A stretch of 64,000 nucleotides of DNA from a virus, in the IMG/VR virus record IMGVR_UViG_3300032116_000102, positions 21,560-85,559 of that record; one strand, 5' to 3'. How positions within the stretch are numbered: position 1 is the first letter of the stretch; the number at the start of each line of letters is the position of its first letter. Both the position numbers and the translations under genes were made by a program. The notes beneath the pieces are model-generated. The model was not told where the DNA came from and searched no databases. It saw nothing but the letters and a program-made list of their open reading frames with translations. Shown in pieces: positions 4,400-63,977 of this stretch.

Positions 4400-4667
4400 T
4401 ATTCTGTAGCGGTTTATACGGAAAGTATATGACCGTTGCTGTATATGATGTCGTTCACCACGTAACACAACCATGATTTCAATTTCTAAAACTTGCACAG
4501 AATTCCGTAAAGCCTTGGGCTTTAAGGGAAGACTCATGTTATTTGTCCTTGGTTTTGTAGGTCTTCTCTTCCCTGGTTGGGTAGCCTATGTTGTCATCGC
4601 TGGTCTAGCCAAGTGCACCAAGGATCAAGACATGTTTAAGTTCTTAGTACAATTTGCTGATTGAACC

Positions 4668-4823
4668 ATGACTGAAGAACAGCTTGATGCTTTACGTCAT
4701 CTAATCCAACAAGAGATTAACTGTGCCCAAATTGATGGCATGGAACATGGTGTCTGGGGCTGGGCAGAAAAACAACTAGATGAAGGATGGCAAGACTTGA
4801 AAGATAGTTTTAAATCCACCTAA
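4668..4823 (+). CDS. hypothetical protein (51 aa)
   Basis: MTEEQLDALRHLIQQEI...; stop overlaps the first cassette site. Confidence 0.5.
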   Translation: MTEEQLDALRHLIQQEINCAQIDGMEHGVWGWAEKQLDEGWQDLKDSFKST

Positions 4824-4848
4824 GTTCTACACACTACGAGGTTCACCA

Positions 4849-5208
4849 ATGACTCAACGACACCCAATCACTCCGCCGCCTGAGCTTGTACAGCAGTGGC
4901 TTGGCACCTACTTCGGTGCCACCGTTACTGGTGAAGTAAGCGATGTTGAGCTTGCTCTTGCCACCCAATCCGCCCGCTGGGGCGCTGATCAGGAGCTGGA
5001 GGCGTGCTGTGAGTTGCTGAACTGTGAACTTGGCACTGGCTGGGGGCATGGAACCAAACTCCGCGCCGCCCGCCGCCCCAAGCCGCCGAGCTTGAAGGAG
5101 CAGGCGCTAGGTGCCCTCTATGCCATAGCCACAGGCGCTGATGACACTAGAGAGTTTCACCAAGACCTTGAAACCATTAAGCAAGCTCTTGAATCCCTGC
5201 CCGATTAG
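4849..5208 (+). CDS. cassette gene, hypothetical (HPITPPPELVQQW type)
   Basis: GC-rich ORF between two sites. Confidence 0.7.
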   Translation: MTQRHPITPPPELVQQWLGTYFGATVTGEVSDVELALATQSARWGADQELEACCELLNCELGTGWGHGTKLRAARRPKPPSLKEQALGALYAIATGADDTREFHQDLETIKQALESLPD

Positions 5209-60376: not shown

Positions 60377-61396
60377 TCAGATGCTGCCGTCGTCCTGGAC
60401 AAAGCTGAAGGCAGTGGTCACAAAGTCCTTGTTCAGGATTTCAAAACCAGCGTACAGTTGCCAGATCAGGATGATGAAGCGGCTGAAGTCATCGTTGTTG
60501 TTGATGAGCACCTGGGCGTTAGGGCCACCGATACCAACACCAATCGACTGAGGACCGAAGAAGTAACCTTGAGCAACTTCTTGGTTGCTGTAGGAAGGAG
60601 AATCGGTGAAGCTTGCGCTAACAGTCTTGGTTGGGAAGTTGGTCGATTCGAAGAACTTCACACCTTCGAACTGAACACCAGTCGGCATCACAGGCTCACC
60701 AGCCAGGAAATAACCCTGACCAGCTTGGGGACCCATGTAGAAGCTGGCGTTGTTAGGCATCATGGGGTTGCCCATGTACATGCCTTGGCCAGGGTTGCCG
60801 CTGTAACGTGCGATCTCACGGAAGTCTGGGTCACGACGCAGATGCATCATGAAAGTAGGATCGCAGATGCAACGATACAGACCATCAGCGAAGGTAGGAA
60901 CGTTGCGCTTACGCAGGTCCTTAACAACGGTCAGCAGGTCAGTACGCACCTGGAACTGCTGCACCTGAGCGGCGTACTCAGCAGAGGTATAGGAGATCGA
61001 ACCGTTGGCAGCTTTGGTCTTGCCACCGGGGAAGTAGTAACCACCCTGGGTGCTGGAAGCTTCACCGTTTGCTTCTGCTTTGGCAAGCTCGTCAATAAAG
61101 ACGCGGTCACGCCAACGGCGATAGTCGTCAAGCAGCGTCAGGCTGCCGATCGACTGGTGGAACATGTTGAGGTTGCCCGAATCCAGAAGCAGGCGCTGAG
61201 CCGTGATCAGGGTTTCGCGAGCAATCTTGAAGGTGCTGGGCTGGGTCGGATCGCCCGGGTCTGCAGGACCGGTGTATTCCTTAAGCACCACCAGGACTTT
61301 CTCCTTGGTGATGTTACGGCTGTTGGCAGTACCGATAGTCTGGTCAGCAATACGCTCACGGCTATCCTTCGTACCAGGGGTACCCCAGAACTTGTA
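60377..61396 (-). CDS. major capsid protein, exon 2
   Basis: 339 aa starting YKFWG; biased codons; NNNDDFSRFIILIW; follows scaffold-like gene. Confidence 0.75.
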   Translation of the reverse strand, partial: YKFWGTPGTKDSRERIADQTIGTANSRNITKEKVLVVLKEYTGPADPGDPTQPSTFKIARETLITAQRLLLDSGNLNMFHQSIGSLTLLDDYRRWRDRVFIDELAKAEANGEASSTQGGYYFPGGKTKAANGSISYTSAEYAAQVQQFQVRTDLLTVVKDLRKRNVPTFADGLYRCICDPTFMMHLRRDPDFREIARYSGNPGQGMYMGNPMMPNNASFYMGPQAGQGYFLAGEPVMPTGVQFEGVKFFESTNFPTKTVSASFTDSPSYSNQEVAQGYFFGPQSIGVGIGGPNAQVLINNNDDFSRFIILIWQLYAGFEILNKDFVTTAFSFVQDDGSI

Positions 61397-62286
61397 CAAA
61401 TGTTATCCCAAAGGTTCTTTATCCCTTGGATCTTACGGTTTATCATCCCGTAAGTTCAGACTATATCATCAAGCAACTTTTGTTACTTGTCCTGCGCTCG
61501 TGCCTTCTTATCGTCTTCATCTGCAAATGCAATGTTAAGACTCGCTGCGTAAAGTTCAGAATTTTTTGTTCTGTTTTTGTAACGCAGGGTCACTTTATTT
61601 TGTAATGTTGAATGCACATAAGGCCGTAACAACGTTACAAAACCAGGCATCTCTCCACTTAAAATTCTTAAACGATAGTGTTTACGATCTAAATAAAGCC
61701 TTGGATTAACACTTGTTAAATCGTGGATCCATGAGGCAATGCTTTTCGCTTCATCTTCAGAACAATAAGTTGCAAGCAGTCCAACATTATTTGAACTAAC
61801 CACGCATCCATCGTCCATCCAAAAAACAGCTAACGCTTCTAAACCAAGCCCATCAAGATACTCTTGTGAAAAAAATTTTTTACCATTCGGATAAAATTTC
61901 TCTCTCAGTGGTACCAGTAGTTTGCTGGTTACCATGGACTGGCAAGAATTATAAGTTTTCAAGGTGCGTTTGTCGTAAACCTTTCTAGAACTAACTTTTC
62001 CGTTTGTCCCAAGCTCTTGATTGACTTTAGACATTTTCCATTCAAGAAAAACTTTTTGTTTTTCAGAATGAGTAAAAGATAAATAACAAGTGTTTTTACC
62101 TTTTGGGTATCCAAGACATCCGTCGCCTAAGGTGCATGCTCTGGAAAAGGAAAGGCTCACTGTGTGACCAAAGGTAGTCGTTGAACCTTCCGACCATTTC
62201 TGGGCGGCTTGGCTGCTGATTGCCCAATGCTATCGCATTGACGGGTTTCCAGCAATTCACAGGATTTAAAGACCGCTACAAATTCA
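61397..62286 (-). ncRNA. group I intron (890 nt, IA-like)
   Basis: P1 AGACCGT/GCGGTCT with U-G; P10 TTGTA/TACAA; AATTGCTGGAAAC, AATCAGCAG, TTCAACGACTA, GATATAGTC; terminal G. Confidence 0.93.
61483..62160 (-). CDS. intron-encoded double-motif LAGLIDADG endonuclease
   Basis: ACTLGDGCL and LAVFWMDDG motifs. Confidence 0.9.
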   Translation of the reverse strand: MSLSFSRACTLGDGCLGYPKGKNTCYLSFTHSEKQKVFLEWKMSKVNQELGTNGKVSSRKVYDKRTLKTYNSCQSMVTSKLLVPLREKFYPNGKKFFSQEYLDGLGLEALAVFWMDDGCVVSSNNVGLLATYCSEDEAKSIASWIHDLTSVNPRLYLDRKHYRLRILSGEMPGFVTLLRPYVHSTLQNKVTLRYKNRTKNSELYAASLNIAFADEDDKKARAQDK

Positions 62287-62430
62287 ACGGTCTAACTGAA
62301 CAGTTTGGCCCGGTTGGCGAGTAAAATCGTGAACAACTACAGGCTCAACCGCCATTTCCGCAACGTATGCGGGGTGAGGGCGATATAACTCAGCCCCGAG
62401 AATCTTAGGGAAGTCGTTGTCAATAAACAC
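62287..62430 (-). CDS. major capsid protein, exon 1 (not in ORF track)
   Basis: GGAGG SD, GTG start, 48 codons MFIDNDFPKILGAELYRPHP..QTVQLDR, joining exon 2 in frame. Confidence 0.85.
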
Positions 62431-62526: not shown

Positions 62527-63045
62527 TTACATGTACTGCATAGTTGGCACGCCCATCCGCGCCATTTCCGTGTTGTTGGAACTGTAACCTTCGGGATCAA
62601 TTCCTTGTTGGAACCCAGGGATTCCAATCGAGCCGGCCAGGCTGCCTGCAGCTAAACCACCCATGCCAGCAAGACCGGCAGCGAGAGGAACGCCTGCAGC
62701 AGCAGCAGCTTCTTGACTAATGCCACGGTTGATGACATCAGCCACAGGACCCATGGCACCACGGGCAACAGCTTGACGCTTACTACCAGCTGGGGCAGAT
62801 GCACCAAGAGCACCAAGGCCTTCAATGGCTTTGGATGCAGCAGCTGCACGGGCAGGGCCTGCATATTTACCAGCCAGACGTGCAGCGCCAAGAGCACCAC
62901 GGGCGCCAAGGCCAGCAGCAATACCACCCAATACGGCGCTACCTGGATCTTCGCCCTGTGCGGCAAGAGCCCCGCCAGCTACCAGACCGGCAGCAGCGGG
63001 GACTCCATATGCGAGCAGAGGACGAGTTTGTCCTAACGGTCGCAT
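62527..63045 (-). CDS. Ala/Gly-rich hydrophobic protein
   Basis: Start trimmed to MRPLGQ. Confidence 0.55.
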   Translation of the reverse strand: MRPLGQTRPLLAYGVPAAAGLVAGGALAAQGEDPGSAVLGGIAAGLGARGALGAARLAGKYAGPARAAAASKAIEGLGALGASAPAGSKRQAVARGAMGPVADVINRGISQEAAAAAGVPLAAGLAGMGGLAAGSLAGSIGIPGFQQGIDPEGYSSNNTEMARMGVPTMQYM

Positions 63046-63050
63046 GTGCC

Positions 63051-63977
63051 TCACTCCATCACGAAGAGTTTGTTGGAAACCATGTTGGGCTGAGCCTGGT
63101 TCAGAACGCGCCATGCATTCTGGGGATCACGCGCCATGATGTCGTTAAAAGTACCCCAGAAGTTGGTGGGCTGCTGAGGTGCAGAAGCTGCAGGGGGAGC
63201 AGGGAACTCGCCATAGAAGGAGGGATCCACTTGCTCAGTCGGATAGCCGTAAGCTTCCAGATCTGCTTCGCCTTCATGCACGGGATATGGACCTTCAGGG
63301 CCAAAGAAGCGAATGGTGTAATCGCTCAGGACATCTGGGTTGGTCAGAATCTCGTTGTATGCCAGATTCTCAGTATGGGACTGAGTAGCGAACTCGGCAT
63401 ACTGCTTGAGGGTGTCGGTCATTTCCTGACCCCAAACAACGGCGCTATCAAGCAGGCCTTCGAGTTGAAGGGCGTAATTATTTAGAATTGCGGGAGCTTC
63501 GCTTCCGAACGCTGCGATTACTTGCTGGCTTTCCTGGCTCAGTCCCTCCAAGGAGGTTGGGGAAGAGCTGGGCGAGTAGGCCTGGTTGGTTGACCAGGTC
63601 TGCTGAGCCGATTGTTGCGTAGCTGGGCTGTTCACCGAACCGTAGTTGGCCTGGCCGTAGCTCGTCGTCGGAGCTGATGGTTGACCCTGGAACGGGGATT
63701 GAACTGGTGCGCTCAGTAGATTCACTACTTTGTTGAACGCCGATTCCCATGGATTCCCCTGTGTTTCCGCCGGTTGGGATTGGGGGGCGTACTGAGTAGG
63801 GGCTGAGGGTTGGTAAACCGGGGCCGCCTGAGGTGCTGCCACCTGGTAATTCACCGGGGCTGCTTGGTACGAGACCGGGGCTTGGCTCGGCTGGTAAGAC
63901 GGAGTCACGTAACTGCTCGGCGCTACTGCCGGAGTCGGGCTCGTCTGTGGGATCGATTGGACGGTAGCGTCCTGCAT
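63051..63977 (-). CDS. probable scaffolding protein
   Basis: Pro/Gln-rich N-terminus, helical middle; upstream of the capsid gene. Confidence 0.5.
   Translation of the reverse strand: MQDATVQSIPQTSPTPAVAPSSYVTPSYQPSQAPVSYQAAPVNYQVAAPQAAPVYQPSAPTQYAPQSQPAETQGNPWESAFNKVVNLLSAPVQSPFQGQPSAPTTSYGQANYGSVNSPATQQSAQQTWSTNQAYSPSSSPTSLEGLSQESQQVIAAFGSEAPAILNNYALQLEGLLDSAVVWGQEMTDTLKQYAEFATQSHTENLAYNEILTNPDVLSDYTIRFFGPEGPYPVHEGEADLEAYGYPTEQVDPSFYGEFPAPPAASAPQQPTNFWGTFNDIMARDPQNAWRVLNQAQPNMVSNKLFVME

Follow-up and report, generated by a model that had tools for sequence, protein, structure and literature searches.

A putative mobile group I intron with a LAGLIDADG endonuclease gene in the major capsid gene of an S-EIV1-like cyanophage

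The capsid locus

The window analyzed here is a stretch of 64,000 nucleotides (nt) and comprises bases 21560-85559 of the 85,559-bp IMG/VR record IMGVR_UViG_3300032116_000102, which is rated complete by CheckV. On its minus strand the major capsid gene is interrupted by an insertion of 890 nt, which is very probably a functional mobile group I intron that carries a homing endonuclease gene. The locus consists of the following parts, numbered on the window, with protein lengths in amino acids (aa).

62287..62430, minus strand: first exon of the major capsid gene, starting with GTG at 62430, 48 codons, ending ..CAG TTA GAC CGT
61397..62286, minus strand: putative group I intron, 890 nt, opening with UGA.. 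and closing with ..UUUG, omega-G at 61397
61483..62160, minus strand: endonuclease open reading frame (ORF) within the intron, 225 aa, GTG start, LGDGCL at residues 11-16 and WMDDGC at residues 114-119
60377..61396, minus strand: exon 2 of the major capsid gene, beginning TAC AAG TTC TGG (YKFW..), 339 codons plus the stop at 60377

The GTG start of exon 1 is preceded by a Shine-Dalgarno sequence (GGAGGA) at a distance of 8 nt, and the reading frame meets a TGA directly after the CGT at 62287. Spliced, the two exons encode a capsid protein of 387 aa (48 + 339). The G+C content is ∼0.35-0.40 in the 890-nt insertion and 0.50-0.60 in the exons. Because the intron interrupts it, the capsid gene is mis-called by gene callers. 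The truncation foreseen in the original prediction, which had been made from the DNA letters, was found as a 340-aa frame starting at TTG 61399. This TTG (61399-61397) forms the intron's 3′ end and its last G is the omega-G, which refines the earlier coordinates by 3 nt and leaves the protein at 387 aa.

The identity of the interrupted gene was investigated by profile searches and structure prediction. Exon 2 matched the major head protein family phrog_1357 (7.7e-14). The structural model was made for the intronless protein of locus L005 (P0001), which is 96% identical to the window protein in both exons, together with 40 diverse homologues, and reached a predicted local distance difference test score (pLDDT) of 83 and a predicted template modelling score (pTM) of 0.82. 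The top Foldseek matches listed from the PDB were all phage major capsid proteins or virion structures, from the cyanophages P-SCSP1u and Pan3 and from GP4, KHP30, N4 and others (best E-value 6e-13, probability 1.00). The family match and the modelled fold thus support the earlier suggestion that the host gene encodes an HK97-fold major capsid protein. The sole isolated relative in the phage collection was Synechococcus phage S-EIV1 (KJ410740), which comes from a lake in the high Arctic, with 87% protein identity over exon 2 and the same gene order downstream of the capsid gene. The source phage is an S-EIV1-like freshwater cyanophage.

Intronless relatives and the insertion site

The boundaries of the insertion were determined by comparison with intronless homologues. 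In S-EIV1 the capsid ORF is uninterrupted and encodes 383 aa (L001 3857-5008, plus strand). Its protein reads ..QPGQTVQLDR/YKFWGNPG.. and its DNA ..CTCGACCGC/TACAAGTTC.. across the intron site, which is marked here and below by a slash. At least 598 IMG/VR contigs encode a relative of the capsid protein, and the empty site was counted in the 78 best IMG/VR loci having both exons. In 76 of these a single ORF was colinear over QLDR/YKFW, while the other two had a ∼890-nt insertion at exactly the same point. Intronless homologues that are not colinear over the junction had been named beforehand as the outcome that would speak against an intron; S-EIV1 and the 76 loci were colinear. The exon 1 protein was 94-98% identical to the N-termini of intronless relatives, and the arginine at the insertion site (Arg48) was conserved in at least 90% of the capsid family.

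When the endonuclease protein was used as the query, 15 IMG/VR contigs from different samples were found, and in all 15 the ORF lay at the identical position in the capsid gene. The introns fall into three groups.

Intron group A: endonuclease 85-93% identical to that of the window, capsid protein ∼90%
Intron group B: endonuclease 68% identical to that of the window, capsid protein 66%
Intron group C: endonuclease 50% identical to that of the window, capsid protein 67%

Exon 1 ended in GACCGT in all 13 intron-bearing alleles compared, as predicted if a U at position -1 and pairing in the splice-site helix P1 are required. Among 77 intronless alleles the arginine codon was CGC in 73, CGT in two and AGG in two, with GAT frequently in place of GAC. 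The difference between CGT and CGC makes spliced RNA of the window allele distinguishable from an intronless allele.

Structure of the intron

A search with the Rfam group I intron model RF00028, one of the checks proposed with the original prediction, gave a match at 62296-62033 with 40 bits and E-values of 1.9e-8 (region) and 3.3e-10 (per genome). The match was obtained in a permissive search, while the default Rfam scan at the gathering score (50 bits) found none in the window. The alignment was good over P1-P7, and P3′, P8 and P7′ were forced onto ORF sequence. The real 3′ half lies downstream of the ORF and contains CGCAGGA (P3′), an 8-bp P8, AUGAUA-UAGUC (J8/7-P7′), P9, a P9.1-like hairpin and the closing ..UUUG. 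The capsid intron was the only RF00028 match in the whole genome, and the ORF-less introns that interrupt the capsid gene in relatives scored 67-102 bits. The elements of the proposed fold are listed in transcript order.

62270..62293, minus strand: P1, exon AGACCGU (62293-62287) paired with the guide GCGGUCU (62276-62270)
62277..62282, minus strand: P10 guide UUUGUA, directly 5′ of the P1 guide, paired with UACAAG, the 6 nt that open exon 2 (61396-61391)
62258..62264, minus strand: 5′ strand of P3, UCCUGUG, partner at 61496-61490
62214..62254, minus strand: P4-P5-P5a domain from the Rfam alignment; P4 62254-62249/62219-62214, P5 62245-62243/62225-62223, P5a 62239-62235/62230-62226
62185..62213, minus strand: P6 (62213-62211/62187-62185) and P6a (62207-62201/62196-62190), capped by a GAAA tetraloop (62200-62197)
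62175..62179, minus strand: 5′ strand of P7, GACUA, preceded by J6/7 UUCAAC and fitting the RF00028 consensus
62171..62174, minus strand: 5′ strand of a P7.1-like helix, CCUU, directly 3′ of P7
61503..61506, minus strand: 3′ strand of the P7.1-like helix, AAGG, within the C-terminal codons of the ORF
61490..61496, minus strand: 3′ strand of P3, CGCAGGA, in the last codons of the endonuclease ORF
61470..61489, minus strand: P8 hairpin, CAAGUAAC-AAAA-GUUGCUUG, with the ORF stop UAA (61485-61483) in its 5′ strand
61459..61463, minus strand: 3′ strand of P7, UAGUC, preceded by J8/7 AUGAUA; P3 and P7 form the pseudoknot typical of group I cores
61432..61454, minus strand: P9 hairpin, CUUACGG/CCGUAAG, 100% paired, three covarying pairs
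61408..61429, minus strand: P9.1-like hairpin, CCAAGGG/CCUUUGG, 100% paired, four covarying pairs

The fold was evaluated by covariation in an alignment of 13 introns with 12 and 10 nt of flanking exon, onto which the structure was drawn by hand; the encoded endonucleases are 50-93% identical. As controls, the 3′ partners were slid by 1-3 columns and 500 shuffles were made. In the alignment 93.1% of the cells were paired, vs 30-41% in the slid controls, and 25 pairs had changes on both sides, vs 0-6 in the slid controls. None of the 500 shuffles equalled the observed values, except for the count of pair types, which was equalled by nearly all of them. With boundaries drawn from intronless homologues and a fold drawn from covariation, the identification of the 890-nt insertion as a group I intron, the central claim of the original prediction, is supported at the level of sequence.

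P1 was 98.9% paired, with the wobble U62287·G62276 at the splice site retained as U·G in 13 of 13 introns and a distal A-U pair replaced by U-A in five sequences. In P10 three of the six pairs changed on both sides, and the guide tracked exon 2: where UACAAG (Lys) was replaced by UAUCGU or UAUCGC (Arg), the guide UUUGUA was replaced by CGAUA or GCGAUG. The omega-G (61397) was present in all 13. Within the core, P3 was 100% paired with three compensatory pairs (UCCUGUG/CGCAGGA to CUCCGUG/CGCGGAG), although its strands lie ∼770 nt apart. The proximal P3′ onto which the Rfam alignment was forced (∼62127-62118) was rejected, being 75.8% paired with no compensatory pairs, and the distal GCAGGA chosen in the original prediction was right. 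P4 and P5 were invariant and 100% paired, and P5a was variable. P6a was 92% paired with four pairs changed on both sides, and four pairs likewise changed in P8. P7 (GACUA/UAGUC) and J8/7 (AUGAUA) were invariant in 13 of 13, so that covariation neither supports nor contradicts P7. All the helices drawn earlier were thus present, and P1, P10, P3, P8 and P9 covaried, while the invariant P7 was uninformative.

The P7.1-like helix of 4 bp was 100% paired with two covarying pairs (C-G/G-C/U-A and U-A/C-G) and encloses the whole ORF, which therefore sits in the P7.1-like loop, between P7 and P3′. The position given for the ORF in the original prediction, with its end overlapping P3′ and P8, was borne out: its last nine codons run over P7.1′, P3′ and the 5′ strand of P8. 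The covarying group I core is made up of about 210 nt that lie outside the ORF. The last observation also bears on two other readings of the insertion, as a homing endonuclease gene that stands free and as a chimera of the assembly. Either is scarcely conceivable, as 15 independent IMG/VR contigs, all from different samples, have the insertion at the identical nucleotide, and as an unspliced contig over the 5′ junction was found, with 0 differences, in the public run X1 (labelled RNA, probably DNA).

RNA data

Public RNA runs were examined as short Logan contigs. The sole contig over an exon 1-exon 2 junction came from run X4, is 60 nt long and reads GACCGC; with C at position -1 it derives from an intronless allele and is no evidence of splicing. 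In run X1 the intron is present with 100% identity. This run may itself be the sample from which the record came, and in that case it says nothing about habitat or expression. Contigs of runs X1 and X3, from an algal-bloom study, matched only 61453-61472 (P7′/J8/7) and 62175-62200 (P6/J6/7/P7). In these contigs the two segments are separated by 84 nt, vs 702 in the window, and the flanks are unrelated; they look like a related ORF-less intron in another gene or organism.

Had the insertion decayed into a non-splicing relic, the capsid would be built from the truncated 340-aa protein or from two separate polypeptides. The frame that ORF callers find from TTG 61399 would agree with this, as would the lack of spliced RNA in the short public RNA contigs. 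Against it, the 25 compensatory pairs, the invariant U·G and omega-G and the exon-tracking P10 point to ongoing selection on the ribozyme. The exon 1 protein is 85-98% identical in all intron-bearing loci, CTG or ATG stands in place of the TTG in L086 and L087, and throughout the capsid family R48 is conserved together with the N-terminal arm. A relic is highly improbable on this evidence.

The intron-encoded endonuclease

The intron ORF matched PF03161 (LAGLIDADG_2) with 79.1 bits against a cut-off of 25 bits (E-value 4.9e-22) and phrog_11023 (3.5e-12), and was the only PF03161 match in the genome. A phmmer search of the endonuclease alone against the PDB gave no match; the profile of its family found I-SceI with an E-value of 5.5e-13. 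In the alignment of the 15-member family, residues G12-D13-G14 and M115-D116-D117-G118 were invariant down to 26% identity. The AlphaFold model of the protein had a pLDDT of 92.6 and the pseudo-dimeric alpha-beta-beta-alpha-beta-beta-alpha arrangement of this fold, and it resembled I-WcaI (6x1j; template modelling score (TM) 0.74, root-mean-square deviation 2.8) and I-SceI (1r7m; TM 0.71). The LAGLIDADG assignment of the original prediction was thus confirmed by family, profile and fold matches, and the model supports an intact two-motif enzyme of the I-SceI/I-WcaI type that is predicted to cleave DNA. The ORF was intact in 17 of 17 loci. Compared with the window, the ratio of nonsynonymous to synonymous substitution rates (dN/dS) was 0.06-0.13; as it stayed low while dS reached 0.6-2.2, the protein has long been under selection.

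Such selection could also arise if the intron spliced only with its own LAGLIDADG protein as a maturase, as for the fungal mitochondrial bI3 maturase and I-AniI, and the ORF would then be maintained for splicing as much as, or instead of, for homing. The ORF is intact with low dN/dS in all 17 loci even though the intron is rare in the population, it overlaps the core helices P7.1′, P3′ and P8, and the bI3 maturase and I-AniI are among the fold matches (ranks 6 and 13-15). The closest folds, by contrast, are the pure endonucleases I-WcaI and I-SceI (TM 0.71-0.74 vs 0.53 for bI3), and the acidic residues of both catalytic motifs, which proteins acting only as maturases often lose, are invariant. 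Moreover, none of the usual helices is missing from the core, its extensions are stable and capped by tetraloops, and the related ORF-less phage introns of T4 td and SPO1 self-splice, which counts against a dependence on a maturase. We therefore consider strict maturase dependence unlikely and an enzyme acting in homing the better description.

Among the isolated phages of INPHARED no close relative of the endonuclease was found, the best matches having ∼31% identity, in crAss-like and PVP-SE1-like phages. A relative with 52% identity (WP_338442349.1) is encoded in the chromosome of Synechococcus elongatus IITB4 (2.89-Mb contig).

Distribution and mobility

The distribution of the intron was investigated in a maximum-likelihood tree built from 84 coding sequences of the capsid gene. 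It required 7 gains or losses of the intron, of which well-supported branches forced at least 5, and every group-A intron-bearing allele had intronless nearest neighbours. The clearest pair of filled and empty sites was that of L087 (filled) and L011 (empty), which are identical at 1015 of 1017 positions of exon 2 and ∼100% identical for 1 kb upstream. Between them, 19 differences were packed into the 134 nt directly 5′ of the insertion site, vs 2 in the 1017 nt 3′ of it. This tract has the appearance of a one-sided co-conversion, as expected from gene conversion initiated by an endonuclease. L087 and L011 also differ in a block of ∼500 nt, ∼1200-1700 nt upstream of the intron site (15-51% identity, with gaps), perhaps a small gene that has been exchanged or a further mobile insert.

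Further introns and neighbouring genes

Other group I introns interrupt the same capsid gene in relatives of the window. An ORF-less intron of ∼245 nt (RF00028 87-102 bits) lies after codon 4 (GTG TTC ATT GAT / AAC GAT..) in ∼36 of the 92 locus entries, among them the nearest relatives of the window, and two more insertion sites lie after approximately codons 36 and 90. L085 and L095 have three introns each in the capsid gene, and four insertion sites are found in the family (codons 4, ∼36, 48 and ∼90). The capsid gene of the window has the codon-48 intron only and lacks that at codon 4.

Codon-4 intron: L085 1519-1769; L083, L084, L086 and L087 ∼1985-2236; also L089-L092, L004, L006, L009-L011, L014, L015, L019, L020 and L022
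ORF-less group I introns of 67-73 bits, after ∼codon 36 (L095) and ∼codon 90 (L085, L095): L095 402-687 and 1796-2068; L085 2908-3270

Three group I introns in a single gene are reportedly also present in orf142 of Staphylococcus phage Twort. The Jug phages have on average 18 introns per genome, with intron-rich structural and essential genes (PMC12880540). The relatives of the window resemble these phages in that their capsid gene can hold as many as three group I introns; the window itself has one.

Immediately upstream of the capsid gene lies a gene (62527-63114, minus strand) for an Ala/Gly-rich protein of 195 aa, whose counterpart in S-EIV1 has 158 aa (L001 3267-3743). Searches of Pfam and PHROG gave no match for it, and from the position of its gene one might guess at a scaffold or decoration protein. 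The GenBank record of S-EIV1 (KJ410740.1 60784-62010, L001) omits the 383-aa capsid ORF; in its place an antisense 'hypothetical protein' (L001 3782-4543) and a 3′ fragment (4538-5008) are annotated.

Discussion

The evidence on the RNA core, the encoded protein and the distribution of the insertion makes a functional mobile group I intron the strongly favoured explanation. The late transcript would fold into P1, with the U·G pair at the splice site, and P3-P9, with the P3/P7 pseudoknot. An external guanosine would attack after U62287, and the released exon 1 would then attack after the omega-G at 61397, with the register kept by P10. This would join ..GACCGU to UACAAG.. and restore the 387-aa capsid frame, whereas translation of an unspliced transcript would end at the UGA with which the intron begins. 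The 225-aa enzyme, acting as a monomer, would cut intronless capsid alleles around GACCGC/TACAAG in co-infecting relatives, and repair from the intron-bearing genome would copy the intron and some 5′ exon sequence (homing). We infer the splicing catalysis, the DNA cleavage and the exact cut site from these comparisons.

Several observations weigh against this explanation. The RF00028 score of 40 bits is below the gathering score of 50 bits, which we attribute to the 702-nt ORF-bearing insert between P7 and P3′ that breaks the model. P5a is poorly alignable between the intron groups, and the endonuclease begins at a GTG without a visible Shine-Dalgarno sequence. Neither splicing nor DNA cleavage was directly observed; the RNA contigs were short and the only junction contig was intronless. 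Finally, the tract between L087 and L011 could have arisen by ordinary recombination, or by loss of the intron and not its gain; no donor of the tract was found among the loci, the best match being another intron-bearing allele with 88% identity, vs 86% for L011.

Group I introns in capsid genes, and intron-encoded homing, are already established. The original prediction overstated the rarity of a LAGLIDADG intron in a late capsid gene, since cases have been published for Tuc2009, for LittleE (LAGLIDADG) and for crAss-like Delta phages. In mycobacteriophage LittleE, a capsid-gene group I intron with the LAGLIDADG protein gp14 undergoes splicing when late genes are expressed (Pope et al., 2013, PMC3706429). 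As in the window's lineage, this intron lies in the capsid gene of a siphophage, contains a LAGLIDADG ORF and occurs in some but not all phages of the cluster (PMC3706429). In contrast, the ORF of LittleE, on the bottom strand, is I-CreI-like and 177 aa long, whereas that of the window is I-SceI/I-WcaI-like with two motifs, has 225 aa and lies on the sense strand in the P7.1 loop; host lineage, capsid family and insertion site are unrelated. The introns of lactococcal phage Tuc2009 (cited in PMC3706429) and of the crAss-like Delta group, in the gene for the major capsid protein (PMC7886860), are alike by description in interrupting the major capsid gene of a tailed phage and breaking gene calling, and differ in host and endonuclease content.

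In its RNA the intron is closest to other phage introns. Its 5′ core (intron nt 11-115, P1′-P6) is 71-79% identical to group I introns of S-PM2 (psbA), SPbeta, Alteromonas phage AD45, Bacillus phages and S. thermophilus phages (lysin type), and, as in phage introns of the IA type, P7 and P3′ are separated by an additional helix and P2 is absent. Introns of the S-PM2/SPbeta type are located in genes for psbA, ribonucleotide reductase, lysin and polymerase and have an HNH, a GIY-YIG or no ORF, whereas here the gene is that of the capsid and the ORF is of the LAGLIDADG type. The putative enzyme resembles I-SceI, from the omega intron of the yeast mitochondrial large subunit rRNA, and I-WcaI in being a monomeric two-motif LAGLIDADG_2 protein encoded inside a group I intron. 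It differs in sequence (∼16% identity) and in its target, which is rRNA for those enzymes and the capsid gene here, where its activity is predicted. To our knowledge, LAGLIDADG enzymes are uncommon in phages, as is the I-SceI-like, sense-strand, P7.1-loop type. In the literature no paper was found that links S-EIV1-like phages with introns, and what is new here is a capsid intron in this lineage, where it was previously undescribed.

An intron endonuclease of phage PhiPA3 is used in competition between phages (PMC11620839). The window is similar in that an intron-encoded endonuclease in an essential gene might cleave a co-infecting relative's intronless allele; enzyme family and gene are different, and competition by the window phage is a hypothesis. 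A speculative and on balance doubtful extension is that the first ∼90 codons of the capsid gene are a landing zone for introns, with the codon-48 enzyme being more than a selfish homing element: it would serve as a weapon against the ∼97% of co-infecting relatives that are intronless (by interference competition or by marker exclusion), and might in addition assist splicing and so link the production of capsid to expression of the endonuclease.

The locus further provides an I-SceI-type enzyme with a defined candidate target as a candidate tool, and a data set of 13 diverged copies with strong covariation, a clean filled/empty pair and a one-sided putative co-conversion tract. The CGT/CGC difference lets metatranscriptomes tell the spliced junction ..CAGTTAGACCGT/TACAAGTTCTGG.. 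(T at position -1) from an intronless allele. For the S-EIV1-like phages, an abundant lineage whose capsid gene is mis-called both here and in the S-EIV1 record, recognition of the intron restores a predicted HK97 capsid protein of 387 aa that is useful as a marker gene.

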